Of a stretch of 64,000 nucleotides of DNA, positions 3,549 to 63,324 are shown one piece after another (position 1 is the stretch's first letter; each line of letters begins with the position of its first letter). Location of the stretch: NCBI GenBank assembly GCA_024679065.1, contig JAGIQG010000008.1, positions 95,728,001 to 95,792,000 on the forward strand, read 5' to 3'. Below the pieces are notes generated by a model. That model saw only the letters and a program-made list of their open reading frames with translations, was not told the DNA's origin and did not search any database. The position numbers and the translations under genes were made by a program. Source of the DNA: Sphyrna mokarran (taxonomy: Eukaryota).

Positions 3549-3832
3549 TGGCACAGTGTTGCCTCACAGCGCCAGGGATCTGGATTTCCTTCCCAGTTTG
3601 GGTCACTGTCTGTGTGGAGTCTGCATGTTCTCCTTATGTCTGCCTGGGTTTCCTCCAGGTGCTCTCGTTTCTTCAAAAGAGTCAGAAAGATGTGCCAGTT
3701 AGGTGCATTGACCATGCTAAACTCTCCCTCAATATTTCCAAACAGGTACAGGAGTGTAGCGAGTAGGGGATTTTCACAGTAACTTCACTGCAGTGTTAAT
3801 GTAAGCCTGCTTGTAACAGTAATAAATAAGTT
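3549..3832 (+). mobile_element. V-SINE, 'AATAAATAAAC' tail subfamily
   Basis: GCCTCACAGCGCCAGGGA head, TGGGTCACTGTCTGTGTGGAGTCTGCATGTTCTCC core, tail GGGGATTTTCACAGTAACTTCACTGCAGTGTTAATGTAAGCC..AATAAATAA. Confidence 0.9.
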
Positions 3833-4104
3833 TTCAATCTTTTGCATGCAAAAAACCCAGTTTAGGGCATTGCTCCACTCGCATAAAGTATCACGTCAGC
3901 AGTAATCACTTTTCTGTGAAGACTTCACCCAGCCAGTAGAAGGACGATCAACACAGTTGGCCCTTCTACTGGGGAAATGGTGTTTATTCCAATCTTTGTC
4001 TCTTAATGCTATGGCATCATTCATCTTTTGCCAAGCATTAATTGGCTGTTCAGTGCAGCATTTTGCATCACTGGTTATAGCCATGAGCATTTTTCAAAGA
4101 AAAA

Positions 4105-4485
4105 TGAACAATATTTACATAGCATCTTATTACATCTCTCATAAGTATCTCAATGTATTTCTCATGCAATTAATTAATCACTTTGCAATCTATTGGCTGT
4201 TGTCAAGGAGGCATATGTGACAGCCATTGTGAATGTACTAACATTCTATTTATAACAATGAATGATTAACTGCATGGTTAATTATTTTTGGAAGCATTGA
4301 TCAAGGAAAGAATGTTGTTCAGGGCACTGGGACATCTTTGAAAACTTTGAATAGTACCATAGAATCTTGGATCAGTGGAAAGAATTGGTCAAAAACACCA
4401 CCCGAAGGATGGCATTTTCAATAATACAGTATTCCCTTAGCACAGCATTAGAATGTCCGCCTAGATTATATGCTGGAGCCCTGGT
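4105..4485 (-). mobile_element. Old Deu-domain SINE remnant (SacSINE1/AmnSINE-like)
   Basis: Degenerate ATTTACATAGCATCT tail plus TGAATAGTACCATAGAATCTT and CCGAAGGATGGCA..ACAGTATTCCCTTAGCACAGCATTAGAATGTC.GCCTAGATTAT blocks. Related remnants near 11230-11370 and 34860-35090. Confidence 0.55.
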
Positions 4486-8709: not shown

Positions 8710-9810
8710 CTAAATGCCTCCCCTTGGTATTCAATGGCACCTCATCACCAAATCCCCCAACATCAATTTCCTGGCTCACCTCTGACCAGAAACTAGATTA
8801 GCTAAACGAATACTGTAGACATAAGGACAGGTCAAAAGCTGGGAATTTGGTGGCAAGCAACTCCTGACTTCAGAGTCTGTTCACACGCACAAGTCAAGAT
8901 TTTGATGGGATAATCTCCATTTTTCTGGATAAGTGGATCTCTAACAGTACTCAAAAAGCTCAACACCATCTGGATAAAGCAGCCCACTTCATTACATCCC
9001 AACCAACATTTTAATCGTCCACTCCCTCCATCACCAGTGCATTATGAAAACAGTGTGGGTCATCTACAAAATATGCTGCAGCAACTTGCCAAAGTTTCTT
9101 TGACAGCACTTCCCAAATCTGCAATCTCTACTATCTAGATGAACAATGTAGCGGGTACGCTGGAAGATGACCACTTCCAAGTTCCCCTATCTTTCTCAAT
9201 CTTCTCCGGCCCTGTTAGTGCATAAGTCAGACTTTTGTCTGTTTCCCTAGATGATTATTCCTGGAACAGGTCACTGGTCTGTCCCAAGGGGCTTATACTT
9301 TGAGGGGCATTATACCACATCAAGCAATCAAGCATAGCACACACATAGACACACACACACACACAGTCTAAGAGGTAATATAGGATGCACACACACTGTC
9401 TAAGGGGTAATGTAGGATGACCAATCCATCTAACCTGTATATCTTTGGACTGTGGGAAGAAACCAGAGAATCGGCAAAAATCCACGCAGACACAGGAAGA
9501 TTGCGCAAACTCCCCACAGACAGACACCCAGGTCAGAATTGAACCCACGTCTTTGGCACTGTGAGGCAGTAGTGCCACCCAGGTTCCCCTACAAGTTGTG
9601 CATAATCACAACTTGAAATTTTACTACTGCTCCTTCACAGTTAGTGCCTCAGATTCCTGGAACTCCTTCCCTCGCTGCAAGTGCACCTTCACCACACGGA
9701 TTGTAGTGGCCTAGAAGGTAGCTTATTATCAATTTCTCAAAGGAATGATCAATAAATGCTGACTTTGCCAATGGTGTTCACATCCCATGACAGAATAGAA
9801 AAATAAATCA
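8710..9810 (+). mobile_element. Degenerate CR1-clade LINE 3' part, split by a SINE insertion at 9190-9578
   Basis: Decayed ORF2 C-terminus (..AQV....WD.SP..W.S.S...LKKLNTI..KAA..) and 3' end CAATAAATGCTGACTTTGCCAATGGTGTTCACATCCCATGACAGAATAGAAAAATAAA. Confidence 0.7.
9190..9578 (-). mobile_element. V-SINE with atypical 3' extension and 13-bp TSD
   Basis: V-SINE head and core on the minus strand (9578-9405), then a GT-rich segment and a unique tail. Flanks CCAAGTTCCCCTA (9177-9189) and CCAGGTTCCCCTA (9579-9591). Confidence 0.8.
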
Positions 9811-13918: not shown

Positions 13919-16028
13919 CCTTTGGGAAGGGTAATTATGATGCGATTAGGCAAGAATTAGGGAGCACAATATGGGAACAGAAACTGTCAGGGAAAGGCAC
14001 AAATGAAAAGTGGAGCTTGTTCGAGGAACAAATACTGTATGTCCTTGTGTGTCAGGCAGGGAGGAAATAGCTGAGTGAGGGAACCATGGCTCGCAAAAGA
14101 GGTTGAGTGTCCTGTCAAGAGGAAAAGGGAATCATATGTAAGGATGAGAAAACAAGGTTCAGTTGGGTCACTTGAAAGTAACAAGGAATGAGCTAAAGAA
14201 AAGAGCTCAGGAGAGCTAGGAGACGACATGAGAAATCCTTGCTGGGTCAAATCAAGGAAAACCCTAAAGCTTTTTATTTTTATCTGAGAAATAAAAGAAT
14301 ACCAGGGTGAGGTTAGGGCCTATCAAGGATAACTTGTGGAAACTTGTGCATGCAGTCAGAAGAGATAGGAGAGGTAATGAATGAATACTTTTCTTCAGTG
14401 TTTACCAAGGAGAGGGGCCATGTTTTTGAGGATGAAAATGTGATACAGGCTGATAGGCTGGAGGAGGTAGATGTTCTGAGGGAAGATGTATTAGCAATTT
14501 TGAAAAACCTGAGGGTCGATAAGTCCCTGGGCCAGATGGGATATATTCTAGGATTCTTTTGGGAGGCAAGGGATGAGAATGCCGAGCCTTTGGCTTTGAT
14601 CTTTGGTCCTCACTGTCCACAGAGGACTGGAGAGTGGTGAATGTTGTTCTTTGTTCAAGAAAGGAAATAGGAATGATCCTGGTAATTATAGACCTGTTAG
14701 TCTTACTTCGGTGGTAAGTGAGTTAATGGAAAAGGTCCCGAGAGTCAGGATTTATGAGCATTTGGAAAGATACAGCTTAACCTGGGATAGTCAGCATGGA
14801 TTTGTAAAGGATAAGTCTTGCATCACAAATTTGATTGAATTCTTTGAGGAGATAAATAAGTGTGTAGATGAAGATAGAGAATGATGTCGTGTACATGGAT
14901 TTTAGTAAGGTGTTTGATAAAATTCCCCATGGTAGGCTCATGGTGTGGGATAGAGGGAAATTTGGCCGATTGGATAAGTAACTGGCTACTTCATAGAAGA
15001 CACAGGGTGGTGGTGGATGGAAATTTTTCAGACTGGAGTCCAGTTATCAGCAGTGTACCACAGGGATCAGTGCTGGGTCCTCTGCTATTTGTGATTTTTA
15101 TCAATGATTTGGAGGAGGGGGCTGAAAGGTGGGTCAGTAAATTTGCTATGATACCAAGATTGGTGAACCAGTGGATTAGGTGGAGGGCTGCTGTAGGCTA
15201 CAATAAGACATTGATAGGATGCAGAGCTGGGCAGAAAAGTGGCAACTGGAGTTTAACCTTAATAAGTGCAAGGTCATTCATTTGGGTAGGACAAACTTGA
15301 ATGCGGATTACAGGGTCAACAGCATGGTTCTGAGGAATATGGAGGAACAGAGAGATCTGGGGGTTCATAGCCACAGAAGATTGCCACTCAAGTGGATAGA
15401 GGCACGAAGAAAGCCTATAGTACATTAGCGTTTATTAACAGAGGGTGTGAGTTAAGAGCTGTGGGGTTTTCTGCAACTGTACCGGATCTTGGTAAGACCA
15501 CATTTGGAATATTGTGTGCAATTCTGGTCACCTTACTATAAGAAGGATGTGGAAGCATTGGCGAGAGTGCAGAGGAAATTTACAAAGATGCTGCCTGGTT
15601 TGGAAGGTAGGTCTTATGAGGAAAGGTTAAGGGAGCTATGGCTTTTCTCTTTGGGGAAGAGGAGGATGAGAAGCGATTTTGTAGAGGTTTAATGAGGGAA
15701 TAGATAGAATAGATGTTGAGAGACTATTTCTTTGGGTGGATGTATTTGTTACTAGGTGGCATAACTATAAGGTTCATGGTGGGAGATATAGACGGGATGC
15801 CCGAGGTAGGTTCTTTACTCATAGAGTGGTTGGGATGTGGAATGGACTGCCTGCTGTGATAATGGAGTTGGACTGTTTAGGAACTTTCAAGCGGTTATTG
15901 GACAGGCACATGGAGCACACCAGAATGATAGGGAGTAGGATAGCTTGATCTTGGTTTCAGACAAAGCTTGGCACAACACTGAGGACTGAAGGGCCTGCAC
16001 TGTGCATTCTGTTCTATGTTCTATGTTC
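13919..16028 (+). mobile_element. 5'-truncated CR1 (HER1-like) LINE, decayed ORF2 reverse transcriptase
   Basis: Frameshifted ORF pieces with CR1 motifs: [136 protein letters not shown]. Ends in (TTCTATG)n. Possible short TSD TTCATTA (13912-13918 / 16026-16032). Confidence 0.95.
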
Positions 16029-17280
16029 ATTATACATTGAGTTAGTGCACATGGACCATTCCTTCTCAAATCTCCTAGCCGACACCCATCACCCGCAGCA
16101 TGTTCCGAAAATGTCCCAACCTTAACTCACATGCCTACATCTGGGCCCAGCTCTCAGCACTGCACAGATACGTCAACCAGACACTAGCCTCGTCCCTTTT
16201 CTTTTAACCACATCACTTTTTTTCACACATAACACATAAGTGCAAAAATTGCACTGCATGATAAACAGCTGACAAATTTGGTTAATGGAAAGACTTAGAT
16301 TAATAAAGGTCTTAAACCATTTAAGATAACCAGGTTAATGGCTCTGTCAAAATAGCAGACAAAGTAATTTCATACAAACGCACATCCTAATATCACACTG
16401 TGTCATTTGCAGGCCATAGAGAATAACAGATGGCTGGGAGTGTGTTACAGCTGTCAACACAATCATGGTGCGAGGTGGCAAAAGTGCAATTGGGAAACTG
16501 CTGCTGTTTATCCCATTACCTGACCCTCTTGAGTGTGCCTCGAACTCTCTGAGTTATGCCTTTACCAATTTTGAAAAATTTAATATGTAAGCGTCGATTT
16601 ACAACTTTTGCATTTTTACTGTTTGGGCTTCATTACATTTTCTGTTCATCCACCGAACAATTCCTGTGCTTAATTTTCCCACACAGTTTTACGACTGAGA
16701 AAGAGATTTTGTTTTTTATAAAACAGCATTGTAATGCCGGAGCAGTGCTTCTTGTTGAATGTAAAAACTGTGTTTTTACATGACACTGAGGACTATTAAA
16801 AAAATTGCCATGCATTTTTAGCATATTTTAACCGTCTCGTAAAGTAGAGATAGAACAATGTATGAACCATTACATTGTGCAAGAATTCACAGCACTATAT
16901 TAGCTGTCAGTTTTACTGTAAACTTTCAGGTCCAATATCACAGTTAGTCATAATACATGACTCTCAAGTCAATTACACCAGAACCCGATTGACAAGGACC
17001 CAACTTATATACATTTAAAACTACCTGGGAGTGAATTAAGTGGAGGGAGGGTGGGGCTCTGCTGCCATCAATTAATGGTCTATGTTTTGTGTTTCTGTTG
17101 TTATTATATCATCAGAAACCCTCAACTGTGGGATAATTCTATCATTCAATTCTACTATCTGTTCATTCTGTCATTGACTGTGCATATCTTCTGTGTGTAA
17201 AGGATTATTTCACTGTCTGTGAGGGTGATTGTTCGTTACAATAAGCTTTCAAGCGCTGATCGCCTTTGGTAAGTTATGGT

Positions 17281-24159: not shown

Positions 24160-26479
24160 GCAGACATGTGCACAACCCCATACTGTATATTTTAACCAAG
24201 TTAACATTTTTATTCAATTAGCAGACAAAGAAATTTTTGTATATCAAAAATTGCAAATAGGAATTTTGTAGCACTGGCGTTCAATGGGTTAATGTGCCTT
24301 TGGAAGAAGGAATTGGCAGTTGATGCAACTTGAGTTTGATTCCTAATGTGGCTTTATTAATGTTAACAAGAGCTGTGAATTGCCACCTATCTTACAACTA
24401 ACCCCACTTGCAAGACAGTACAATGTGCAGTGACAAATAAGATAGGTGCCTTGTCAAATCTGACCCGGAGGCAGATACAGCTGGATTGAGACAGAGTGCC
24501 AGCAGAACATGTTAGCAAAAAAAATGCTTATTTAAGAGGGGAAAGAAGCTAATTATTTTAAACACTCTCAGGAGGCACGAACACAAGTGTTTAAATGATT
24601 TTTTTTCTTTTATTATTATTCCTAGCCCCTGTTATTGAGTATGCCATTAATAATGTTTCCCCCATGAATTTGCATTGCTGTTAGTGAAGGGCAGCTCCAC
24701 ATCATTCAGCAATGTCTGCTATAAGTAACATGCAGATCCTTTCAGGCTGTTTTACCACAATATTAAGGGAAAGGGGCAAGAGTTAATTAAAACGTTGTGT
24801 AACAGCTGCACAGTAACTGCTAAATGGCCCCTCAGAGTATGGATATTTGTGGGAAGGATTATACCACATAATGTAAGTACATTACTGTTAAGCCTGGGCA
24901 ATTCTGGTTTTAAACCCAGTATTTTAAAACTTTTCCACTTAGTGGACATCCTATTGAGACTGACAACGCCTGTTCGTTCTTCTTCAAAGGATCCAATCAC
25001 GATAATTTCAAATGTGATAATAATATCAAAGTTACTAAAACCAGTGATTGCCGCCGGACTGCAATGCAGAGTGAAAGAGCTTGAAAAAAAGTGTGGCTGT
25101 AGCAGCTTAAGTACCTGCATATAACTCACAGAATCAAATTCTCTATATGATTCTATAAGCTTCAAAGCTTAGCAGTGAGGTGTCATTCTTCACCAGAAAG
25201 GATGTTGATAAGATCCTTTCAGTATTCAGCCAGTTCAGGCACTTGTTGGGCAAGATGCCTATGTCATTTCTTTTCTTCACTTTTCTCTCTTCCTTTCTTG
25301 AAGGCACTGACTTAAGCTGGGTAAAATTCCACAGGCAGTATTGAAAGTGGGGTCTTGTTGGCCTGCAGGGCTTGGCTTCACTTGGCCATTGTATTTAGCA
25401 AGAAGCAATTGATTAGTCGCACCAGGGCATTTTCACTCAATAAATGCTTTTAACTATGCGATGAGACTATTCACCTAAACAAGCAACAAAGGTTAGTGGT
25501 TTATAACATCCACTGTATTCTCTTGATCCTCATGGACCATCCATTCTTTAGTCCAGTTTTACCTGATTTGATTTGGAGAGATCTCCTTCTGCTGCTCCCA
25601 GAAACCGAACATTCAAGCATTCAGGCAAAACTCTGGCAAAATTGATTTTGGTAGACTGTGTACAGTGAGCGGAATTTTCCCTTTTATTTTGTGGAGTGTG
25701 GCAAGGGTGGTATTGAGGCTGTGGGGCCCAACGGCAGCTTTCTCTACCATATCGTTAGGAGCTCTGAGAAAAGAGGTCCAAGGGGCAAACCTGTGATGTC
25801 ATACTGAAGGGGCGGGGCCTGCAACCACCTTTGTAAAGACTGGGGTGCCATTTATAAAGGCCAGCCCAGTATACAAAAGTAAAAATAGAACATCCCTTCC
25901 CTCATGTACCTGGCACTACCTAGAAACTGCCCTGGCACTGCCCAAGCACTGGCTTTGGAGATAGTTCCCTGGCAATGCCAGGGGCAGTGCTTCAAACTCT
26001 AAAGAGTTTCTTCTGCAAACTTGTCTACTCTCCTCAGTAAGGTGTGCGAAGGTTCCACATGAAAAGCTATTTTTGAAGGTAAGGTTTTATTGTCACACTG
26101 CCTCTTTGAAACCATGAGGATATGGGATCAGGTTAACAAATTCTTTCTCTACCCATTCCCTCTCCCCCCGTCACTGACAATGCTGTTGCTCAAGGAATTT
26201 GAATGGGAACAACAACAGCGATAAATTCCCTTTAAGAGAAGCAAAACACTTACTAAATTTAGTTAAGGAAATCTGTATTCCTCTTGCACTCGGGCAGACA
26301 AGAAAGCAGTTCAGCTACAGATGCATAATAGTGCTGAGGATCTGACAGTATTTACCATTGCTAGTGCCAATATTAGACACAGTATTGTAAAAATGTTACT
26401 TGAATCATTCCATGTGAGAGATTTGGAATTATTTCAAAAAATTATATTTATAACACGTCCTTTCAAAGAATGATTTTTT

Positions 26480-26787
26480 AAAGTTTATTTATTAGTGTTG
26501 CAGGTAGGCTTACCTCAACACTGCAATGAAGTTACTGTGAAAATCCCTTGGTCGCCACACTCTGGCACTTGTTCCGGTACAGCAAGGGAGAATTTAGCAT
26601 GGCCAAAGCATCTAACCAGCACATCTTTTAGTCTATACAAGGAAACCGGAGCACCTGGAGGAAACCCACAGGGAAAAGACACAGGGAGAATGGGCAGACT
26701 CCGCACAACAGTGACCCAAACCAGGAATGGAACTGGGTCCCTGGTATTGTGAGATGGGAGTGTTAATCACTGTGCCACCACGCCACC
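26480..26787 (-). mobile_element. V-SINE, 'AATAAATAAAC' tail subfamily
   Basis: Reverse complement of the 544-829 and 60868-61180 family, from AAAGTTTATTTATTAG to CACTGTGCCACCACGCCACC. Confidence 0.9.
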
Positions 26788-27006
26788 AAGGAATTATCTC
26801 CTACGGGTTGCATTATGATGCAATTATTAGTACACACTTCAAACCTAGTCAGAATCAAAGTGTCCCCATTTTCTGTGAGAAGGTCTACACAGAAGAGTTA
26901 GTTGGTTATTTTTCCTGAATTTTGCACATGCAAGGATAGCAATATTGGGAAGTTAAAACACTTTGAGGCATCAATTACTACCTAGTTCAGATACAGATGA
27001 AAAATA

Positions 27007-27290
27007 AGTTAAAGTTTATTTATTAATCGTAAGTATGCTTACATTAACATTGCAATGAAGTTTCTATGAAAATCCCCTAGTCGCCAGATTCTGGCACCTT
27101 TTTGGGTACCCTAAGGGAGAATTTAGCATGGCAAATGCACTTAACCAACACGTCTTTTGGACTGTGGGAGGAAACCAGAGCACCCAAAGGAAACTAACAT
27201 AGACACAGGGAGAACGTGCAGACTCCACACAGATAATGACCCAAGCTGGGAATCAAATCCAGGTCCTTAACACTGTGCCACTGTGCCCTC
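27007..27290 (-). mobile_element. V-SINE, 'AATAAATAAAC' tail subfamily
   Basis: Second minus-strand copy ~220 bp from the previous one, with the same tail and core. Confidence 0.9.
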
Positions 27291-30680: not shown

Positions 30681-33600
30681 CCAAGGTAAAGATAAACCTG
30701 GAGGGATTTTCACTCTTGATAGCTATCTAGTGACTCCTGTTGGATAATGGGCTCCATGAATTTCAGTAAGTGATGGCATGGAATTCAAATATGAAAGTAT
30801 TATTGTCAAATAACCTGCTAACATTCACGGGAGGTCATTTTAAGTTTGTATTGGAGGAAGGGAGTGTATATGGAGAGTAAGGATGGACAACAGTGAAATG
30901 ATTGCCTGTCATAATCCTCACCCAATTTTAACTTCCATTTAAGATGAATCGACAGGCTATATAATGAGCGACTAGTTGACAATTACTTGTTCCCCATCCC
31001 CATGGAAAGTTAAAATAAGCCCACTCTGTAGCATCAGATGTGGACAAGAAACCAGAAGGTTTGGATCTGTACTCAAATGTGAGTTACTACTGTCGATAAA
31101 TGATGGAAGAAAATGAAAAATTTGGGTGAAGCTGTTTTGATTTCCATTCAGTTTTGGCTACAACAAAAGGTCTTTGTTTGTGTTTAGGTTCTCAGGGAAG
31201 TCAGCTGCACTCGCCTTGGAGGAGTTAACCCGAAATATATGCTCTTAATTATCTACTAGTCACTAAACCACCATACATCTTGGCTAAAAAAAAGAGAAAC
31301 TTCTCTTTTCAATTAAAATTTCCCATTTCACTTGAAGACCCAGTGGGCAAAATATTTGGCTTGGCACAACAACGCCAACACTGTTTGCGCCAACGCAGTT
31401 TGACCCGTTTGCTGACACAAGTGCAGATTCTGCACCAGCAGCTGTAGCAGAGGTATTTTCAACCCTTCCTGTCCAGACTAGGAAATTAATGTTGCAATTA
31501 TGTGTGGGTGGGAGAATGTCAAGCTGGTGTGGGATACTTGGCTTTTCTTTTGGTCACCTGATATTTTTTTCTTTTACCTCCAACTTTTTTTTTCCAGCTT
31601 TGTGTGTATTATCAGATCATGTCTGTCCACTTATCGTCGATAAAAGATAAAATAATTAAAATAAGAGAAATAAGATAATTATTGACATCTTGCCTTAGAT
31701 TAAATAGATTAAGGCCAAAAAAAATAGTAAAATGGTTTGAGATGGCATAGGGGAAAAGAAAGACTCTCAACTCATTCATGTGCACTGTTAAATGGGAAAT
31801 AAAATATATCAAGAACTCTCCTCCTGCACAAAATAATTATAAACCATGGCTAACACCGAGAGCAAAAATAGAACTTTGCTTCCCAGTGAGATCTTCTGCT
31901 CTTTTTTGCATTGGAACCAACATTACTATAAATTGAAGGTCAAAACTAAGCCCAGCTTTAGTTCCAGCCTAAATAGAATGAATTTAAAATAGACTTTACA
32001 CTGTCGGTGCTTAATATACATATTATGATGAGCTTAAAACAAAATCTATGTTTTGGAATTATGAAGTTACATGTATATTACATATACTGGGCTAAATATG
32101 AAGCAGTAAATATCATTGCAAATTATTGTAACATTTTAAAGATTCAAGCATTCAGCTGAAGACATGAAACTATAGAATTTGGTTTATCTGGTTTTTATTG
32201 GGGGGAAAAGCATTTTTGGATTATTTTGTAGCATTTGAACAGCAGTTGGAAAATAAATTATTTGAACGCGTGACAGGCTGGCATCAAAACCTGGTAACAC
32301 TGAAATGAAATCCAGGTAACAGCCCCATCTCAACCACTCAAATGTGCACATGAAAAAGGCATAATTTTCTTTTCCGGAGTGTCATGTTTAAATAGATCAG
32401 GATGTTTTAGCCACATTATTCCTCTCAGCTTTAAACCACCGCAGTAGGAATAATCTCCCAATACTGTATCTGTGCAATATCATCACTTGCGTCTGTCCTT
32501 GCCTGATTTGATGTTCTGAAATGTTAACTGCTATAATATATTTCCTCCATTATTCTCATTATAATGGTCAGAGACAACTGCCTCTTCACAGAAGTTTACA
32601 TAAGTGCTGACCCTGTGGACTTTTTTTTAACAAAACTATTTTTTTAAACCACAACGTTTAATAGATGATAGGGCTCACACACACGAGAAATATGTCAAAG
32701 TTTCTTTTTAAATTTACGAACAAAAACATGACTGAAATATTTAGGGAAAAAAAAGGACAACTTGAATACATCACTTTAAAATTAGCTTGGAAGATTACTT
32801 TTTGAAAAATCAGTAACTATTCAGTTGAACAAAATTAAACTCTTGCCATAACATGTTGCATTTTTACTTGAAAGGAATATTAGACTCTATGTGATGTTAG
32901 GGGGGCTGAGAACGGATCAAGAGTACTAACCGTAGTTAAGCTTTTAGAATGTAGGACTCTTGATACAGGGCTGCCAGCACAGCTACCCCTGTTATTGTAA
33001 TGAACTATCTGCTAATAGAATTATTTAACACTATGGTGGGTAGAATACCCATGAAGAAGGAGAATGCATTTTACACGATTAAAAAAATCTTATTGCTGAA
33101 GGAATTTATTAGCTTCTAGAGGCATACAAAGATATGTAGATTAGATACAGTATATCATATCATCACGTGGTGCAAAGCTCCAACAGGCACAATTATATTT
33201 TTAGATAGGATTTATGAGGAAAATGGGTCTGTTTTTATTATTTTAGCATTCGAGCTAGCTCTTACGGTAAATTTAATAAAGCAAATGGCATTCCAATGCC
33301 TGCAAAACACTGAATTCTACTGCTTTCAAAAGGCAGCAACAGGATAAAATACCATAGCAAGGCTTTGCCTTTTTAAGGTGCGAAGTATTGGTCTGCACAG
33401 TTTTTAACATTCCAGACCTAAACATTAAATTTTTAAAACTATGCAAACTGATACATAGCACAGTCAGCCACAGATAAACACATACCTGATGTGAGTAAAG
33501 AACACCAGGCTTCACTCTTAACACTAAAATGCAGCTAACAATGCCTTTGCATGTTAGCTGTATATTTGTCAAAACTCGGCTGCAATAACGATTACCTAAT

Positions 33601-34752: not shown

Positions 34753-36959
34753 ACAAACCTGCACCCAAAAACCAATAATATTTTAATATTAAAAAAAAGC
34801 CATTTGGAGACTCTGCTCTCCTGACACTGAAATGAATAGAATTAGAAAAAAAGCAAATTTCCGTTTTCTTAAAAAGTGCTTTTCAAGAGCTCAATACATC
34901 CCAAAGTGCTTTGCAGATGATTTAGTACGTTTTTGAAAGGTAGGCATTACTGGAGAAATCACAGTAGCCAATTTGCACACAGCAAGATCCCACAGACAGC
35001 AATGAGATAACCTCTACTTTCCTAATTAGTTGGAGATTAAGTATTGACCAGGAAGCCAGACAGAACTCATCTGTGATTTTCATATAAATATGCAAAAGGT
35101 TCACAGACTAACCTCTAACACCATAAGTTTCTGGTGTAAAGTTATATTTCAATACTTTACAATTTTCCAGACAATTTGGTCAGAGGTATTAAGCCTTTAG
35201 AAGTGCAAACCAGTGTTCACTTATGCACAATATTTTTTGCTCTCTTTGCACAGCTGAAGCCAGGAACTTGACGGCAAATATCTTCTAATGGACCCAATAA
35301 CCAGAGAGGTTATTTCTCTTTGAAAGAATAACCTAAAGTTGTTGACGGGACAAAATATTATAGCAGCCTAGGGCCTTGACTGCATAATAGCCTGAATATG
35401 TGTTGAAGTACTTATTGTCCCACAAGAAGTCACGGGATCCTGTCAGTACAATCGCATTATTCATAAATATTACTTCTGTCATTACAGGTAACAGAATTTT
35501 TAAATGGCACTGATTTTATGCTAATACTGGTCCAGGTATTTTCACAGAATAGATCTGTATCCAATTCATTTTAATGATATAGTTCAATGCACTCTAATGT
35601 TAAGGTGTCAAGTATTTATGTGGATGCACAAGATGTGACATTGTTTGGGCAGGATCACATAGGTACACATTAGCACACATGTTTAAGTAATGATAAGTAG
35701 CCTATTAGCAGGGCACTTATTACATGCTAACTTGCATGACAGGGGCAAGGCCTTAACCAAATCTTGTCAGCCATATCATAACAACTTTTTATGTGATTAT
35801 TACCTACAAGGCCCAGTCAGTCTGTTGGAGATCGATGGGAATTCCTTTCGAACACATCGGCTTATGTTAAGGCATTTATACTGCTGTGGGAATGGTTATA
35901 TTAAGTTCATTGGTTAATTAAAATTTGACAGACATCCAATAATTTCATTCTGTATAGATTGGAAAATGTGGTGCCAATTATTTCTCATGTGAATGCAACC
36001 TTTGTAACCGTAATTTGCCCCAGTGCTGCACTACTAATGGAGAAGAATATCCCAAAGTGTTTCAGAAGGGGGAGAAATTCAGAGGTAAATAGAGGTTGAG
36101 AGAAACGTTAGTGGAGCTGATTAATGGTGTGGTTAAAGAGACTTTTTTTATGGCAGTGGGAGAGATATAGCAAGGGAGGTGGGAGGATTCAGATAGTTAA
36201 AAGGAAAGTTACAATGTGCAGGCACAAGGTAGCTTATTAGCAAAGTTACTCTGACCAACTGCAAGGCATCCAACAGGACTCAAACAATGTTGTAATCTAT
36301 ATTGCAGCTTATAACCATATTAAGAACCCAGACTGTTTCTTTCAGATCATTCCTACATATCTGTTATTTTCACAACTTGCATAGACTGTTATGTATAATA
36401 ATATTCTCAATCAATCTGAGAGTTTTTAGCCATCAATCTCTCCATGGCATTAATGCATGATGATTCGCACTGAATGATTAATAATGTTGACATCATTATT
36501 GTAAGTTTATTAAAAAATAATTTCCAGTTTCCTAATGCCTCTGAGTAAATGGACTATTTACAACTATATTGGACTGGTATCCAAAGTTCAGTCCCAGGCC
36601 TGACTTTTCTGATCTTTAGTTGGAGCAGTCAGAGGATTCTACAATTACCAATGTGGCCTGCGGTAGGAAGGGGGAAAGGAGGAAAGAAAACTCTCATCCC
36701 TCTATTTTCCTTTCTAATAGGACATTCTGAAACATTTCAAGAAGGTCATTATGAAAAGTGCTGTAATATTCTGCATAGAGCATGCTGCATTTGGAGGTGC
36801 TTCAATATAACTGTGATACATGTGAGATTTCCTATACACATTCAATGTCAGATACAGCCTGAGGAACTCTTCACAGTTTCCAGCTCCTCATGACTGAAGA
36901 GCTTTAGACAGTTGCTTTTCCCAATTGTGCCTCTGTAATGGCTGCTCTTATCTTTAGTG

Positions 36960-39345
36960 TATTTCTTAGCATGTAGTCCAAGATCTTGGAATTTGACAGT
37001 CTGCAAAACATAACTGTGGGCAACTCTTTACAATGGAAGACCAACACGTTTCGGATAAACCAAAGAGTCTCTTACTCCAAGTTGATTATCCTCTAGCATA
37101 TTTCTCTCATTGTGTGTCCCTGGGGACAGACCAGAGTCCTGCACCATGAAATGGTACTTGAATGAACTTCGGCAAAAACCACTGCATCTCTATCCAGACC
37201 TTCTTTGCAAAACCGCGTTCCAGAAGGAGGTACAGGACAGTCTTTTGCCCACCACAGCCATACTGAGAGCAGCATGCAGTGGTGCAGAGACTTCAGGGGG
37301 AAATGTCCCAATTTCAGCAAAATCTGCTCCTGCTGCGGTCAATGGAATTTGCTGTCAAGAAGGACTTCCAGAGATCACCAGGGTCATCTTCTGGTCCAGA
37401 ATCGATTACATGGAGCCAGGTGACATGTGTTCACATTTCTTCTTCCAAAAGGTACACAAAGAGATAGCTGTAATCTGAAGAAGGAAGAGAGCTTGGTAAA
37501 GTCGTTGCAGTCTGACATATTGAGGTTCAGCAAATCCTTTTATGCTGAATTGTTTGTAAAGCCCATAGACGGCATGATCTCCCAGCTATACCTGTCTTCT
37601 ATTGTAGAAGTCTTAGGTGACAGTGAGGAGAAGAGCTTTGACGAAGCTTTAACTCTAGATGAGTTGCCAAAGGCCGTCAAGTAAAACTCCCAGAAATGAC
37701 AGCTTACCGGCTGACCTCTGTTTGACTCTTTGGACTGGATTAACCCAGACCTACTGGAAGTGTATGAGAGTCTGCATCAAGCCAGCAGCAGGTCAGAATC
37801 CATGAGGATAGGCCTCTTCTACAAACAGAAGGGGGTAAGGGAGGAAATTAGAAATCAGCGCACCATTTCATTGTCAAAAATCAAAATTCTGTCCAATCAG
37901 ACAATGTCCGTTTGCTCTGGAGTTGATAATCCACTTTAATGCAACCTGTTCTGTACCTGCAGACAGATCTCTGATAGCCTTACACTTGCTGCTCAGGATA
38001 CAATTGCCTAAGTGTGGGGCAGAGGGTGTGCACTTGCCTCATCAGCCTGGACCAGGGAAAAGTGTCTGATAGAATATCACAGACTTACATGATGTATGCG
38101 CTCCCCAGACTGGGGTTTGGGGAAAAACTCCACATTCGGATCCAACTGCTCTACAGAAATATCAATGGTGCAGTTAGAAACAATGGGTAAGAATTAGAAA
38201 GCTTTCCAATTGAATTTGAAATTTGAACAGGGCTGCCATCTCCCTCTGTCCTCTTTATGTGCTGCATAGCACCTTTTTCTGGGTCCATCAGGAAGGATTC
38301 AGACATAAGAAGAATGATGGCAGATTCCCTCATGGCAGATTGAAGCATTTCTGGGGGTCCTATATTAAACCATGAGTAACTTGTGTTACTCAGAAGCAAA
38401 ACATTCTTTTGCTATCCAAATATTTCCCAATTTTCTTTTCAGTGTTTTGATCAGTCGAGGAGAGGTTGAATGACTCTCATCTCCCAGCATGGAGGTGAAA
38501 GCTTCCCTGTGCATGAAGTCTTCTGTTCAGATCTGCTGTCGGTGTGCAGACTGATGAGTGTATGTAACCAGTTCAAACTGGCTTCAGAAGCCAAGGAAAA
38601 TTGTGACAAGAATAAAGCCGTGTTCTTTGGAAACTGGACTGACCAATCCTTTGTTCCTGCGCTGTCAGACCAGACTGCCTGAATGATCTGTGGATAAGAC
38701 TTGGAGAGGGCAGGATATGCACCAAAACTGGGAGGAACATCTAGCCAAGGTAAGGCAAAAACTGGGCATGTTGGGATGATGCCCCCCCTCCATTGTGGAT
38801 AGGAACCTGGTCATCAGGCTTGGTGCAGGTGTGGCCTATATCCTGATCCTGTGTCACAGTGGCCGCCCTAATCATTTTCTACTTTATTTGAACATTCATT
38901 ATGTATTATGTCTGCAAGGTCACCAGGAATAAGGCTCTGGATAGAGGAGGAAGAAATGTATCCACCTTTATCCTGATGGCCAATTTTGTATGTAGCTGCA
39001 TCAAGCTGTGTGTGGGCCCTCAAAAGACAACCATCAAATGTCACACACGTGCTGAGTTTTCACCTGTCCCCTGTGTTGTGAAGGATGGGTCTGGCCATGT
39101 TACCACGGAACACTCTAGATAGTTGAACATTGCCAAACCATATGTCCCTCATGGAAAAGTTTGTGTTGACTTTGACCACAAGCCTATCAGGCTCCATGGA
39201 AAAAGCTTACAGTGGATCCTGGTGGATGGTTCCCTACTGTCAAAATCAGTTGGCAGAATGCCTCATTACCAGAACTTTCAAGCAAGCACCAAGACATAGT
39301 TTGGTTGTTGGTGAGGAGGGCACTCCCCTTTAGATCCTTCATATA
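36960..39345 (+). mobile_element. Heavily decayed Tx1/L1-clade non-LTR retrotransposon ORF2
   Basis: Remnant motifs SRIDYMEPGDMCSHFFFQKVH, FSKSFYAELF, LTLDELPKAVK, DWINPDLLEVY, KQKGVREEIRNQRTISL, ISLDQGK..DRISQ, QGC..S, NQFKLASEAKEN and WLLVRRALP are typical of Tx1-like RT domains. Confidence 0.8.
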
Positions 39346-39360
39346 CTCTCATTTCTCACT

Positions 39361-39592
39361 TAATTTTAAATTTTTAATTTAATTTTCAAAAATTCTTACT
39401 CCATTTTTAAAGTTACAGACCCAGTGCTTTGGGCCGAGTGGACCAGGCAGATCTGAGTCTTTCTCTTTGCTTGCTCCATAAACCAAATTCACATTGAATC
39501 TAATTCATGGTCCACACAAGGGAGATAAATAAGATCCAAGCTGACAAGAAATGACATTGCATTTGCTCTTGGGTTTAATCTTAGCCAAAAGG
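39361..39592 (-). mobile_element. U2 snRNA-headed short retroposon (copy A), 15-bp TSD
   Basis: Perfect direct repeat CTCTCATTTCTCACT at 39346-39360 and 39593-39607. 5' end GCCTTTTGGCTAAGAT (39593-39578) equals U2 nt 12-27. A-rich 3' tail at 39361-39392. Confidence 0.8.
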
Positions 39593-42500
39593 CTCTCATT
39601 TCTCACTGCTGGTACCTACCCAGTGACCCCTGCTGGACAATTTACATCTGGACACTGAATGAAAAGAGGATCAGGTTCAGTGATACTTCTTATGATCAAA
39701 CAGCCTACCATTATTCACGTATTCAGTGAAATAATTGAGATTGACTAGTTTCTAAAAAATTAAACTTCTTCTCGAGTTATTTATGGAAGTGGAAAGGAGT
39801 TGTCATTCAATTGTCATCTAGTAGAACCAGAACATGAGAATGTTCTCTTGGGCGTAATTTGTGTCACACTCACGGTAGTTACCATAACTCACTCATGACT
39901 CTGTTTCTTAATGAGTTATCAGATTTACCATCTGTAAGATACATTCACCATCCTTGGATGTCATATTGCACTAGACTTCCTGAGAAATATTTTTCCAATG
40001 ACCAGGAATTTGTAAGGCATGAAATGCATCTGGTTTATAAGATCATTTGTGTTGTCACCTGCTTACTTGATACCAATATGCAAAAAGCAAAATCCGGTTG
40101 AACCAAAATAATCCAATGTTGCACCAATATGCTTTTTGTCTGATATACTTAACTGATCATCTGAAATTACTCCAATCTCCAAGAACTGACCTATATCCAT
40201 TAGTATTGTACCCTGGAGCTAAAGAGCCCCATCCGTTTCTTTCCAAATGCTAGAAGAGCAAAATTTATAATTACAGTACCACCGAGGATTTCGCAATTCA
40301 AATGAAAATCCTGTGGAAAATCCTCTGCAACTATCATTATGCTTTGCTAAAATCCCAATGACAGCAATGATCACTATATTTCATTCTGCTAGATTCTCGG
40401 ATCAAAAAGCTAATCAGGACAGTGAAAGACTTATTCCCTGTCAGGAAAAAAATGGTTTTCACCACTGTCTCTTAACACCAACAGATAATATTTGGCAGGG
40501 ATGAATTCTATGAGCAACAAAAAAAACCAGAGGCTACTCGTTGCTATAAATCACTGGTTGGAGTCTTTACCAGTTTAAAAAATCCCCAACTCAAAATAAA
40601 CATTCAGTCCAGTTAATAGTGACCACAACTTTCAGTCTGTAAACTATATCTTTGGTCCCTATGTTATGGAATTGACCTCAGGTGTGCAATAATACCCACC
40701 GACCAGCCTGCAAATCAAGGTATTATATAACACACTCCGAATCATTCTGCAACCACTAGCTGCAGAACCCACTTGGCAGTGAGAACCCTCAAATGTAGTC
40801 AATAGCTGGGTAATACATATCGTGCCCTTCGATGAACTCAATATATTCTATTGGATTACAGATTAAATAAGGCATAAGTGTTAAATGCTACCTAAACACG
40901 GCAGGTTTTTTTTAAGTGCAGCTGTATCACTGTGTGCACAAGGTGCAGCCTTGGGATCTGTCTGTTAATTACTATTGAACTCTCTGAGGATTATGGAAGC
41001 ATATTTGCATCATGTCAAGAATACACACACATATAGAAAATCATCTTCAGAAATGGGCACTCTCTCCCTAGAGTGCAAATAATTAAACATTATTCCGTTT
41101 GTGCACCTAATGTTTTTGCTTATGATTAGTCTTCTGTTACAAACTTGAGCATTGCATGTTTAATAAGAAATATGATTTGTCAGCAAATAATTACTTCCAC
41201 ATGCTAATGAAGTCAAGGTTGCTCTAACTGTATTTCAACTGTTTAACAAAAATGTCAAACCATTAAGTAGAATAGAAGCAACTTGAGTTACATATAACTG
41301 ATGATTGCTTTTGATTACAGTCTAGCAATAAGTCTTGTAGGTTTGATCGTATCGTTAGGCGTCAGAGCGTTTTCACATTAAGAGAAAAAATCTTTACAAA
41401 AAAAGGCAAGTAACTGATGCTGTTCCTAAAATACAATATTAATATTATGAACTTTGATACGTCTTTAAATACGAGTCACAAAATACATATGTTTTTAGCC
41501 GAATCTTCTGGCAAAAGTGAATCAAATTATTTGTTATCAACTCCTAAGATATTTGCATCTTTGATGGGGTCGGTTTGAATTCGGTCTAGGTGCACTTTTC
41601 CAAACTTATGACCCGGTACTAGGGAAGGCAACAGGGGAGAGCCGCTTTGACTATTTCCCTACCACACACAGGGGAGTGTTTTCAACAGCTCTGCTGCCTG
41701 CTACTTCTCCCAGACTTGCTGCTTCTGATGCTTCGCAGAATGAACGGATCGGTGGCGTGGAGTAAAACTGAATCTTGGCACAACAAAAATCACACCCTTC
41801 TCCTCAGCATTCAGCAAGTCCAGAAGGAATGGGAAATCGCCGAAGATTCACCAACTCTCCCTTAATAAAGATCGCACCAGCATTAGATAAGAGTGCAGGG
41901 TTTTTTTGTGTTTTTATTCTTTTTTTAAAAAAAAATCAAGTAATAGTGTATTCGTGTATTTTTCTAAGGGGGCGGGGGACAAATGCAACTTTGTATTCCA
42001 ACAATATTTTTGCATGCACGGTGATGGAACTTGGGTTGGCCCAGCTTTGTATTTGGGTCTCGGACGATGCGAGGCTAAATTGCAGTGAACGGCACGAGGT
42101 TTGAAATTGAACAACCCCGGCACCACACTCTCCTTTCAGACCCACTCTCTCCGCTGCTTTGACTTGTAGCCGCTGTGATAGGAAGTGTGAGCTTCTGTCA
42201 GCCAGCCCCAACTCTAACCTCCCCCAGCCCCACAGCCCATTCTTGCTGTCAATTCCCCTTTGATCAGAATACATTTCCATTACAATTGAACAACATTTCC
42301 CAGAAAGGGAATCATGTTTCTCCGTGGTACATTTAATGATTTTATCTATTTTCTATTTTTATTAAATTAATCTTTTTTTTATTATTTTCGTGTCCTCGGG
42401 TTATCTTTTTTCCCCTGTTTTTTGATGTCCATCAAGATGCTGAATACTCCCATTATCCTTTTTGTTTCAACTTTTTTTTCTCCCTTTTATCTTTGCCCTC

Positions 42501-58519: not shown

Positions 58520-58918
58520 GAAGTGTTTTTAAAGAGCAGCCACTGTTAACTTATGTCCCAGGCATACTGTACTCACTTTGGGCAATGTACTTGGAACAGA
58601 ATGTCAAGGGGATGGAGCCCACATAACTTTAATCTGGGATCTGAACTTGTCGAAAATACTAACAGTGGAACACAGACAAAGATTTATGTTGAAGAAAATC
58701 CAGTTTTTTAAAAAATCAAAGAAAGGTGGTGAGATGAGCCTAGCAATCTAGTTTGTCCTCAGAAACAAAGAAGTTTTTAGAAATGATAATTTGGAACATA
58801 GTTAATAGTTACTTGGGCTAATGCAGATAAGTTAAGGAAATCCGACACGGATTTGTTAAGGCAAGTGTGTGTTTAATGAACTTGCTTGAGTTTTTAGATG
58901 AGGTGGCAGAGAAGGCAG

Positions 58919-60127
58919 AACAAAGAACAAAGAAAATTACAACACAAGAACAGGCCCTTTGGCCCTTCAAGTCTGCACTGACCATGCTGCCCAACTTAAG
59001 TAAAACTCCTACCCTTCTGGGGACTATACACAATCTGTAATTACCTGGAAGAATCTAGCTACCCTTCTTAGACAAAAGAATAACATTGACTATTCTCTAT
59101 TCCCATCCTACTCATATACTTGTCAAGATGCCCCTTAAAAGTCATTACCGCATTCACTTCCACTACCTCCCCTGAAAACATGTTCCAGGCACCCACTACT
59201 CTCCATATAAAAAAATCTGTCTCATATATCTCCTTTAAACTTTGCCCCTCCTTTAAATCTATGTCCCCTAGTAATTGACTCTTCCATTCTGGGAAAAAGC
59301 TTCTGACTATCTACTCTGTCCATGCCTCTCATAATCTTGTAGACTTCTATCAGCTCTATTCTCAACCTCCGTCGCTCCAGGAGAACAAACCAAGTTTCTC
59401 CAACCTCTCCTCATAGCTAATGCGCTCCATACCAGGCAATATTCTGTTAAATCTTTTCTGTACCCTCTCCAAAGCCTTCACATCCTTCTGGTAGTGTGGT
59501 GACCAGAATTGAACACTATATTCCATGTGCGGCCTAACTAAGATTTTATAAAGCTACAACATGACTTGCCAATTTTTAAACTCAACAACCCTGGTCAATG
59601 AAGGCAAGCATACCATGCCTTCTTGACTACCTTCTCCACCTGCATTGCCACTTTCAGTGACATGTGTACCTATAGACCCAGATCCCTTTGCCTATCAATA
59701 ATCTTAAGGGTGCTGCAATTTACTGTATATTTCCTATCTGTATTAGATCTACCAAAATGCATTATGTCACATTCATCCAAATTAAACTCCATCTTCCATT
59801 TCTCTACCCAAGTCTCCAACTGATCTACATCCTGCTGTAGCTAGTGGTGTTTGCTCCCAAATAAACCTGTTAGACTTTAACGTGATGTTGTGAGACTTTT
59901 TACTGTGTTTACCCCAGTCCAATGCCAGCATCTCCACATCATGACCTCCCATGTAGCCAGTGAGGACACAAAAATTTCTCTCAAGGTCCCAGCAATTTCC
60001 TCCCTTGCATCTCTCAGTGCTCTGGCGTATACCCTATTAAGCCCTGGAGACTTGTCTACCTTAATGTTTCTGAAGAACCTCAATACCTCCTCCTTTATGA
60101 TCTCAACATGACTCAAACTATCTACAA
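58919..60127 (-). mobile_element. Younger CR1 LINE nested in opposite orientation, with internal deletion
   Basis: Tail AGAACAAAGAACAAAG, LVRPHMEYSVQFWSPHYQKDVKALERVQKRF (59540-59450) and IKVDKSPGL (ORF 59877-60185). Confidence 0.85.
59839..59942 (+). mobile_element. Probable Penelope-like pseudo-LTR fragment
   Basis: AGCTAGTGGTGTTTGCTCCCAAATAAACCTGTTAGACTTTAACGTGATGTTGTGAGAC..CCCCAGTCCAATGCCAGCATCTCCACATCAT, the same repeat as 2025-2108. Confidence 0.55.
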
Positions 60128-60867: not shown

Positions 60868-61180
60868 GTGGTACCATGCACAGTGATTAGCACTGCTGTC
60901 TCACAGTGCCAGAGGTCTGAGTTTGGTTCCCAGCTTGAGTCACTATCTGTACGAAGTCTGCACATTCTCCCAGTGTCTCCGTGGATTTCCTCCTGGTGCT
61001 CTGGTTTCCTCCCACAGTCCAAAAGATGTGCATTTGTTAGGTGCATTGACCATGCTAAATTCTCCCTCAGTGTACCCGAACAAGTGCCAGAGTATGGTGA
61101 CTTGGAGATTTTCACAGTCATTTCATTGCAGGGTTAATGTAACCCTACTTGTGACACTAATAAATAAACTTTAAACTTTA
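60868..61180 (+). mobile_element. V-SINE, 'AATAAATAAAC' tail subfamily
   Basis: Full head-core-tail, ending ACTAATAAATAAACTTTAAACTTTAAA. Confidence 0.92.
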
Positions 61181-61621
61181 AAAGGGTGTTTAGAAGTAAA
61201 GTGTATTTGAGTAGTGTCAATCCAATTTCTATTGGGTAGCAGATCTAAGTATAAGTCTGGTACAACAATTTATATTTACATTAATTAGTACATTTCATAA
61301 TATAAGACTGCTGTCACCAAAAGAAGTAGGATAGGGTTGTGATGAAAGGAATTTCCTCTCTTCAATAGTTTCCATTTTGCTAGGAATATCTGCTAACACA
61401 AAAATGATCTTCTGTTTATGGATATTCATGCAGGACTGAACATAACATGTTTGCTTGTTAAGCATGTTCATTCTTTATTTCATTCTGGGTTTCTGAATCA
61501 TTCTGAAAATTGGATATAATAAAAAGACCATATCAAATATGCAAAGATCTACTAGTCTGCCACTAAATCTGAGTTTGAGTTTAAAGCCACCTGAAGGGTA
61601 ATTAATGCCATCCTATCCCAT

Positions 61622-62722
61622 TAGAGTCATAGAGTCACAAAGGTTTACAGAATGGAAACAGGCTCTTCGGCCCTGTTTGTTTATGCCACCCTTTCTTTAA
61701 AAAAAACCCCAAAGGTAGTCCCAGTTGCCCGCATTTGGCCTATATCCATCTTACCCACGTAACTATCTAAACACTTTTTAAGAGACAAAATTGTACCCGC
61801 TTCTACTACTACTTGTATCTCTGGTAGCTTGTTCCAGACACTCACCACCGTGTATATGAAAAAATTACCCCTCTGGACACTTTCGTATTTCTCTCCTTAA
61901 ACCTATGCCCTCTAATTTTAGACACCTCTACCTTTGGGAAAAGATATCAATTACCTATGCTCCCCATTATTTTATAGACTTCTATAACATTGCCCCTCAG
62001 ACTTCTATGTCCAGAGAAAGAAATCCCAGTCTATCCAGCCTCTCCTTATAATTCAAACCATCAAGTACAGCTAACATCCTAATGAATCTCTTCTGCACTC
62101 TTTCTAGTTTAATAATATTCTTTCTATAACAGGGTGACCAGAATTGTACACATTATTCCAAGTGTAACCTTCTAATGTCTTGTACAATTTCATCAAGATG
62201 TCCCAACTCCTTTATTCAATGTTCTGACCAATGAAACCAAACATGCTGAATGTCTTCTTCACCATTCTGTCCACTTGTGACTCCACTTTCAAGGAGATAT
62301 GAACATGAACCTCCAGTTCTGTAATTCTTCCCAATGCCCTACCATTTTTAACTTTTTTTAAATATGTTATACTTTATTCCAATTCAATCCAATCAAGTCA
62401 AATCCAATTCAGAATCCCAACAAGTTGGGACATTCCTGATCCAAGACAGGGCTCTCACCTCCTGTCTTGGGCTTGATCTGCATGATCCAAGCTGATTGGA
62501 GTAGGTAAAGCTCCTCCTCCAAGGTTTGTTCTCATTTGCATCTTAGCCAAAAGGCCAAGATGCCGCTTTAAAAAATTGCTTCAAATGAAGCTAAAATGTA
62601 ACCTAATGACTTCAACCAAGTACAGCATGTTGACATTTCACTTGATCCTAGTCAAATGCCGTATCATTAACTAAGTAAGTCCTGCCCTGGTTCAATTCAC
62701 CAAAATGCATCACCTTGCATTT
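61622..62722 (-). mobile_element. CR1 LINE 3' fragment, interrupted by U2-headed retroposon copy B
   Basis: Tail AGAGTCATAGAGTCA, LE.CVQFWSPCYRK motif (62160-62120), and CR1 sequence resuming at AACTAAGTAAGTCCTGCCCTGG..CCAAAATGCATCACCTTGCATTT. Confidence 0.85.
62347..62654 (-). mobile_element. U2 snRNA-headed short retroposon (copy B), ~14-bp TSD
   Basis: Flanks AATGCCCTACCATT (62333-62346) and AATGCCGTATCATT (62655-62668). U2-like motifs at 62654-62639 and 62563-62540. AATAAA followed by an A-rich tail. Confidence 0.8.
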
Positions 62723-63324
62723 ATTTGTTGGGATGTATCCTAGAATTATATATTCAAGTGAACTGACTGTCCTGTAAGCTGCAGAAAATCATTGACACTG
62801 CAAAGGACAAGTAGAAGGGATAGTTATTAATATCTATCCCTTGCAGTTTCACAGCAATGTTTCCCAATTGCAGTCTTATGAAGCATGCGTTACCATCATT
62901 ATTTTGGTAAGCTACTCTGGTGTGTACAGATTTGGAATTCAATCAGTGGCTAACCTTAGAAGCATCTTTCAGCACTGAATGTTTGTGTGCATTATATATT
63001 TACTACTTGTTAAATTTATACTTTGTATTGCTATTTATTTGTAAAAAGAGAATTAGTTGTTTCAGTCTCAGAACCTCTGGCTTGTGTGTCTATTTCAAAG
63101 AGAATTTCATATAATGACATGAGATGATATTCAATCCTGTAAGCAGGTCCTGAAAAGTACAGTTATATGAAATGCTCGATATGCAAGTTTGTGATAACAA
63201 AATAAGGAAAAAGTGCAGTTTTCAGATTCTAGATAACAGACTTTGTTTCATAGAACACTGATAGGACATCAAGAGAGAAGATGATAGCAACCAAAACTGT
63301 ACAAGAGCTGCAAAAATAAAAGCT

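Follow-up and report, generated by a model that had tools for sequence, protein, structure and literature searches.

A probable multimeric U2 snRNA-derived retroposon of SINEU type within a CR1-like LINE of Sphyrna mokarran

The window, a 64,000-nt stretch of Sphyrna mokarran DNA, contains an insert (B, Table 1) that is probably a multimeric, non-autonomous member of a SINEU-type retroposon family derived wholly from U2 snRNA. At the level of the sequence we demonstrate its marks of retroposition, a modular anatomy drawn from U2, and kinship between its second module and a sister copy (A). The preliminary description had proposed a composite snRNA-derived retroposon, which the retroposition marks and the U2 modules bear out. 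Beyond the two U2 motifs noted there, nearly the whole element appears to descend from U2. All comparisons with U2 were made by eye against printed human U2 (supplement of PMC4640811; bioRxiv 10.1101/2021.08.01.454689), not against the U2 of the host.

Table 1 Features of insert B, its host LINE, copy A and the adjoining LINE, in window positions
Feature	Position	Strand	Remarks
Insert B	62347-62654	minus	308 nt; contained in the 62333..62668 first described
5' TSD copy of B	62655..62668	minus	CR1-like ORF sequence; 12/14 vs 3' copy
3' TSD copy of B	62333..62346	minus	12/14 vs 5' copy
Host LINE, downstream part	61620..62332	minus	decayed CR1-like ORF2 C-terminus and 3' end, 8-nt tandem
Host LINE, upstream part	62669..62740	minus	in frame with downstream part
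Module B1	62607..62654	minus	U2 nt 18-33 (14/16), on to nt 41 (18/24)
Linker	62564..62606	minus	43 nt; small hairpin; T6 run 62575-62570
Module B2, head	62529..62563	minus	U2 nt 4-27 (22/24, exact 11-27), then to nt 33 and one extra base
Module B2, body	62484..62528	minus	U2 nt 28-31, one C, decayed U2 nt 21-61
Module B3	62402..62479	minus	U2 nt 24-31 (8/8), one C, decayed nt 21-48, then nt 57-96
Pentamer array	62378..62408	minus	6.2 copies, 76% matches
AATAAA and decayed A-rich tail	62347..62378	minus	AATAAA at 62378-62373
Sister copy A	39361..39592	minus	232 nt; U2 head, decayed U2 body, A-rich tail
TSD of copy A	39593-39607 and 39346-39360		perfect 15 bp; top score among 33 candidates
Decayed L1-group ORF2, 5' inversion	36902..39350		C-terminal part minus 37292-36907; preceding part inverted 37290-39350

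Insertion and modular anatomy of B

The duplication flanking B is by itself not above background, its score of 8 being the lowest among 33 TSD-plus-A-tail candidates in the window. If a 2-nt slip in an A run is allowed it reaches 18 nt, and the target-site duplication may be 18 rather than 14 nt. The insertion is nevertheless real, because the host LINE is continuous in frame and in alignment once the insert is removed. With B excised in silico, the flanks stay in a single frame through the site and, compared with two further CR1-like copies, give alignments that are uninterrupted there (identities 415/690 and 317/525); a 9-nt gap in this host alignment lies about 10 nt downstream of the junction, not at it. 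The in-frame, colinear flanks thus confirm the earlier account of a 308-bp insert that splits a CR1 with a 12/14 TSD. We take the host LINE to be a CR1 on account of its ORF2 end and its terminal repeat of 8 nt. P0033 matches 62137-61896 in the downstream part, and RVT_1 is present in another copy of this LINE type. At the 5' edge of B, the last 7 nt of the TSD copy match human U2 nt 10-16 at 6/7 positions by eye, a possible junction microhomology. Directly upstream of the host LINE lies a 28-nt near-palindromic stretch, found as a self-match at 62815-62869.

Module B1, with CTTGG at the position of U2 nt 53-57, folds into a single 48-nt hairpin (z -2.86; 1/200 shuffles). The linker shows no convincing homology to U2. 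Its T6 run (62570-62577) falls near the place expected of an Sm site if B1 were colinear (40 nt past nt 57, against 41-42), and the bases between B1 and this run do not match U2. The head of B2 forms a perfected 11-bp stem-loop I (fold z -4.70), the last part of the head (62539-62529) is missing in copy A, and the B2 body agrees by eye with human U2 nt 21-55 at 20/35 positions. In B3 the nt 21-48 part forms a 10-bp stem, nt 49-56 are missing, and a stem IIb-like hairpin is kept via two double changes. The pentamer array overlaps the segment matching U2 nt 90-96, out of which it apparently grew. The pentamer-like repeats, AATAAA and A-tail first described at the end of B are all present, and the U2 3' domain is missing.

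The longest open frame in B is 62 aa; a protein search with this antisense frame returned nothing at near lengths and one unscored candidate at longer lengths. tRNA prediction on B gave no hit, there is no tRNA-type head, and no internal promoter was found in the insert, whose single loose B-box-like match is its U2 nt 25-31 piece. The insert carries one T6 and two T4 runs.

Probable descent from U2 and the sister copy

Recounted by eye against human U2, the outer motif of B (62654-62639, minus strand) matches nt 18-33 at 14/16 positions and the inner motif (62563-62540, minus strand) matches nt 4-27 at 22/24, with a spacing of 75 nt; these figures are identical to those first reported. The inner motif is far beyond chance: analytically, about 2e-4 such matches are expected per window when every U2 register is counted. 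The best Rfam match of B covers U2 nt 7-26 only (E 0.091) and, with 18.8 bits against a gathering score of 46, B does not qualify as a U2 snRNA gene (RF00004). The exact block of the inner motif is nt 11-27. Nucleotides 4-10 perfectly complement the 3' arm, so that perfecting of the palindrome explains them as well as descent does; because the deviations from U2 all perfect the hairpin, nt 11-27 alone count as independent evidence.

The outer motif is weak taken alone. It is missing from the Rfam matches of B, and 14/16 is reached anywhere in the insert by 526/20000 random draws. Together with the non-significant alignment of A to B1 (466/2000 shuffles), these figures would fit a chance resemblance within an unrelated hairpin joined to the 5' side of an element that has one head. 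We judge this distinctly unlikely, as the motif sits exactly at the 5' end (12/20000) and continues to U2 nt 41 (18/24), sharing with the decayed unit of A three non-U2 states (nt 36, 38 and 41). It would therefore not simply be an independent capture. The earlier proposal that the U2 5' end was captured twice stands insofar as both motifs are present, and falls short in that five segments of B overlap U2 nt 21-33 and nearly the whole element appears to come from U2.

The inner-motif 15-mer occurs at two sites in the window, against an expected 0.00016, and the second site starts copy A. By eye against human U2, the head of A matches nt 13-31 (18/20 if the last TSD base is counted as nt 12). 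After one C the match restarts at nt 21 and runs ungapped to nt 55 (25/35, 7/10 of the mismatches being transitions); over nt 21-96 it amounts to 48/75 with one missing base. For this score the analytic value over all registers is 1.5e-4, and among 12000 non-overlapping random window pairs (mean 36.3, sd 1.8) six reached it, all at repeated-element or microsatellite coordinates. After a 12-nt insert, A matches human U2 nt 96-107 at 10/11 and nt 136-166 at 19/31 by eye, with 8/8 at 136-143 and the register within 3 nt of that expected (1.4e-3, register fixed). Around the 12-nt insert, the segments matching nt 85-96 and 96-106 form a 16-bp hairpin at 39476-39510 (z -3.32).

Aligned without any U2 reference, A and B2 agree ungapped at 27/45 positions (4/20000 random draws). 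The likeness of A to B3 is modest (47/2000 shuffles), and the modules of B aligned to one another are not above chance. Taken alone, the B segments have expectations over all registers of 9.5 (B2, 20/35), 9300 (B3, 19/38) and 0.08 (B1, 18/24); they are not significant by themselves, and their U2 reading consequently rests on the register set by A. The Rfam U2 model, at E up to 10, found none of the decayed segments of A or B. A reading of the A/B2 stem as a non-U2 body was dropped once the stem aligned to U2 nt 22-48. A model built from A and B detected no third copy in the window (best other match E 0.52), and BLAST of B against the window returned short matches to A and no full-length second copy.

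A junction of nt 31, one C and nt 21 is found in A (39574-39572), B2 (62525-62523) and B3 (62472-62470), with 13/15 agreement between A and B3 across it; because all three carry it, the junction is presumably inherited. A and B2 further have non-U2 states in common at nt 27, 34, 53, 56 and 57 and the loss of nt 58, and A and B3 at nt 22, 48, 88, 89, 94 and 97, with 10/11 agreement over nt 87-97. Could A and B instead be unrelated one-off chimeras of U2 with other RNAs, alike beyond their heads through chance or by-eye over-alignment? Human U2 retrocopies are many, 57/58 of those characterised being 3'-truncated according to PMC4476161, Rfam is blind to the decayed parts, and several B alignments are weak alone. 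However, the similarity of A and B2 does not depend on a U2 reference, a single junction is common to three modules, and two such inserts occur in 64 kb against the 15-mer expectation given above, which makes separate origins highly doubtful.

The preliminary description named two routes to the U2 heads. Template switching onto U2 RNA is supported as the likely one, although the switch itself is our reconstruction. The other, insertion into a U2 gene followed by read-through, would require that an element like Keno or Utopia twice came to be transcribed from the promoter of U2. Vertebrates do have Keno, whose target is U2, and such an origin would solve the promoter problem. It is disfavoured by the insertion point of Keno and Utopia, U2 nt 38/39 (PMC4640811, PMC6136364): in A and B the fresh heads extend no further than nt 31-33, none starts at +1, and next comes decayed U2 restarting at nt 21 with no foreign LINE body behind. 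The 20-bp duplication of Utopia in reptiles likewise misfits the nt 21-31 overlap, and we find this route barely credible.

Folding, neighbouring elements and possible mobiliser

A 6-bp stem corresponding to U2 nt 22-27/43-48 is paired in 12/12 cells in A and B2, with three double changes, and was also predicted independently by RNAalifold. A stem as good arose in 18/20000 column shuffles and 548/200000 neutral-mutation trials; a pair-shuffle control, whose floor with two sequences is about 1 in 8, gave 52-59/500. Its pairing probability in full-length A is about 0.14, with a competing register, and U2 itself can form 5/6 of the pairs. In these two sequences the stem appears to have been kept by compensatory changes. 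We take it to be the base of the branch-point-interacting stem-loop, competing with stem-loop I. It is absent from the U2 conformations printed in bioRxiv 10.1101/2021.08.01.454689.

Folding is stronger on the presumed sense strand for both B (z -5.9 vs -3.9) and A (z -3.6 vs -1.0), and 1/50 background segments folds below B; two background segments, 3841-4148 and 33281-33588, have fold z values of -6.9 and -5.7. Comparison by eye with human U2 shows changes in both the branch-point recognition sequence (nt 33-38) and the Sm site (nt 99-105), so the RNA would not be a working U2. An HDV-like or hammerhead ribozyme was rejected, the required pairings being absent by eye and no Rfam ribozyme match being found.

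A bolder interpretation, which we think rather unlikely, is that a lineage of snRNA-derived retroposons arose independently in cartilaginous fishes and that selection acts on its RNA as a structural mimic of U2. With a fresh stem-loop I placed before the restart at nt 21, each unit could form both stem-loop I and the nt 22-27/43-48 stem, which in real U2 compete for the same bases, and the branch-point sequence would have been erased. The source might be a U2-variant gene, or a copy recruiting cap or snRNP factors, and new heads would be acquired when homology guides a jump onto U2 RNA, which is abundant.

The kept stems could also reflect selection on a host RNA, if A and B had been retrocopied from host genes for diverged U2 variants, one or a few in number and with their own upstream snRNA promoter, and did not re-transpose. 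Such master genes would suit the colinearity of A and U2 (nt 21 to about 166), the double changes by which stems are preserved and the lack of a detected internal promoter in B, and transcription of SINEU is stated as an open question in PMC4494074. Against them, A and B have unequal numbers of modules and unlike 3' ends, so that several sources would be needed; branch-point and Sm sequences are altered; neither copy begins at U2 +1; and Rfam finds no U2 gene in the 64,000-nt window. Master genes therefore seem to us an unlikely source, and we return to a propagating U2-derived family as the preferred reading.

Copy A adjoins a decayed L1-group ORF2 that is presumably of Tx1 type. This ORF2 was mapped with 35 protein relatives, of which 3/8 scanned contain zf-RVT; its inversion junction lies near 37292, and the preceding ~2 kb are inverted. 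Inversions at the 5' end are best known from mammalian L1. The layout here is the same as in the twin priming described in PMC2912911. The TSD of A starts within about 1 base of the end of the inverted ORF2, an arrangement resembled by the tandem SINEU/Tx1 insertions described in PMC4494074. Remapping of the ORF2 with its inversion ruled out that A lies antisense inside the ORF. A third TSD candidate at 36691-36705 (minus strand; 11/15) comes after an A-rich run, some 200 nt downstream of the Tx1-like stop codon; this match, reached by 584/5000 random segments, is not significant, and the site is possibly an older TSD copy. B itself sits inside the CR1-like LINE. Taken together, Tx1- or L1-type mobilisation of the family is plausible.

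It is a different matter whether the element is itself a LINE fragment, namely an internally deleted Tx1 derivative with U2 heads in its 5' UTR and a LINE 3' end as the tail of B. U2-headed Tx1 families are described in crocodilians (PMC4494074), the long TSD, AATAAA and A tail would suit such a derivative, and A adjoins a Tx1-like copy. Yet U2 homology extends almost to the tail and leaves scant room for LINE sequence, and A and B have no tail in common with the Tx1-like 3' region (182/500 and 160/500 shuffles), a comparison covering the 3' region of a 5'-truncated copy. We regard this derivation as very unlikely. Translations of A and B were sought in the 35 Tx1-like proteins and found in none (best E 0.25). 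The last 120 nt of the element match neither the four LINE tails nor the SINE of the window; compared with these four tails, B gave no sign of being simply a LINE 3' UTR, the outcome that would have refuted the earlier view. One of 24 comparisons reached 11/500 shuffles, mid-element, between the bases before the inner motif and CR1; a CR1 origin of these bases was rejected and the match treated as chance.

An Rfam scan of the whole window gave two chance-level matches and no U2 gene. Pfam on 202/202 open frames of at least 66 aa revealed no host exon, the only matches being two to RVT_1 in the LINE at 14.6-15.3 kb. Two further decayed CR1-like copies occupy 14600-16200 (plus strand) and 58900-60100 (minus strand); an 85-nt element, of which a second copy at 91% identity lies at 2026-2109, breaks the latter near 59858-59942. 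A SINE of 250-300 nt, which we assume to be of HE1/V-SINE type, is present in six copies of 71-82% identity (578-835, 3554-3849, 9400-9575, 26477-26775, 27000-27277 and 60878-61179). The features of this SINE and the LINE types would point to a shark or ray as host. The segment 46000-50000, with G+C up to 0.46, many open frames and no Pfam match, is possibly a promoter region.

Proposed origin and relation to known elements

We postulate that a near-full-length U2 copy gained a poly(A) signal and an A tail, became a substrate of an L1-group reverse transcriptase, and drifted to about 60-65% identity with U2 while several stems were kept. The reverse transcriptase would then have jumped from nt 21 of the decayed RNA onto nt 31 of real U2 RNA, providing a fresh head, and the junction, evident at the sequence level, would have been inherited afterwards. 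Further jumps onto U2 or sister transcripts may have stacked B2 and B1 before B3, and with the loss of the U2 3' domain the B lineage would have come to end in the pentamer array, close to the Sm-site region. As its insertion marks indicate, a 5'-truncated copy entered the older CR1-like LINE by target-primed reverse transcription with a 14-18-bp duplication. The mobiliser may be a Tx1/L1-type LINE. Since B has no tRNA-type head but T4-T6 runs and AATAAA with an A tail, the template would be a Pol II transcript from an upstream promoter outside the element.

The closest known systems are the SINEU elements described in PMC4494074, where recurrent 5' addition, partial duplication and dimers are reported for SINEU-1, so that stacked heads are known, and where SINEU-2 and SINEU-3 have U2-derived bodies and mobilisation is assigned to Tx1-Mar. 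B has their U2-derived head, length below 500 bp without coding capacity, TSD and poly(A), along with snRNA segments repeatedly added at the 5' end or duplicated (partly by eye), oligo-T and no Pol III promoter. SINEU-1 resembles B as a short, non-coding element with a U2-derived head, recurrent 5' additions, partial duplications, dimers, a poly(A) tail, internal oligo-T and no Pol III promoter (PMC4494074). In contrast to B, whose body is decayed U2, the 3' half of SINEU-1 is of non-snRNA, unknown origin, and its U1 and U2 heads are mixed, whereas no U1 was seen in B. SINEU-2 (U1 head and U2) and SINEU-3 (U2 5' 32 bp and 83 bp) share with B a U2-derived body, heads that were exchanged or lengthened through jumps to genuine snRNA, and a first U2 block ending near nt 32; they differ in their internal deletions or U1 fusions and in being 85-99% identical to their consensus (PMC4494074). 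B, unlike both, has a U2-on-U2 overlap at nt 21-31, a body about 60-65% identical to U2, compensatory stems and three modules, and no Mariner-N4 target was seen.

Keno (Tx1 clade) and Utopia likewise link a retroelement with the U2 5' end, but are described as autonomous, inserted at nt 38/39 and followed by U2 from nt 39 downstream (PMC4640811, PMC6136364), whereas B has CR1-like flanks, heads ending at nt 31-33 and a longest frame of 62 aa. L1-made snRNA retrocopies and chimeras resemble B in template switching onto snRNA, 14-16-bp TSDs and junction microhomology, and are depicted as one-offs close to the gene (PMC4476161, PMC2912911). Unlike these, the apparently inherited junction and the derived states common to A and B point to a propagating lineage.

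The survey of PMC4494074 detected SINEU in no group other than crocodilians, and our literature search returned SINEU-type reports from crocodilians only, none from sharks or other fishes. As far as their text bears on the subject, PMC5381603, PMC5786205, PMC4758252, PMC7245038, PMC8143547 and PMC5753468 refer to SINEU only via the 2015 paper, and one sentence of PMC8010984 mentions SINEU and SINE28 together for the genomes of birds, crocodilians and mammals. A whale-shark repeat table has 10.85% unclassified repeats and no class of snRNA-derived SINEs among its entries. The Rfam U2 model misses copies such as A and B, and they will be left with the unclassified repeats; Repbase or Dfam may already list the family. 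According to PMC4494074, snRNA-headed SINEs are on record for a single vertebrate group, and their transcription without an internal promoter is stated as open. If there is a second, all-U2 lineage, the snRNA-headed SINE route recurs, and diagnostic positions become available for finding source loci, transcription starts and the partner LINE. Stacked heads are not new; an all-U2 element, its inherited junction, its conserved stems and its occurrence outside crocodilians would interest specialists. Compared by their descriptions, B works like SINEU, an independent origin is more likely than membership of the crocodilian family, and B probably represents a second origin of a SINEU-type element, in sharks or rays.
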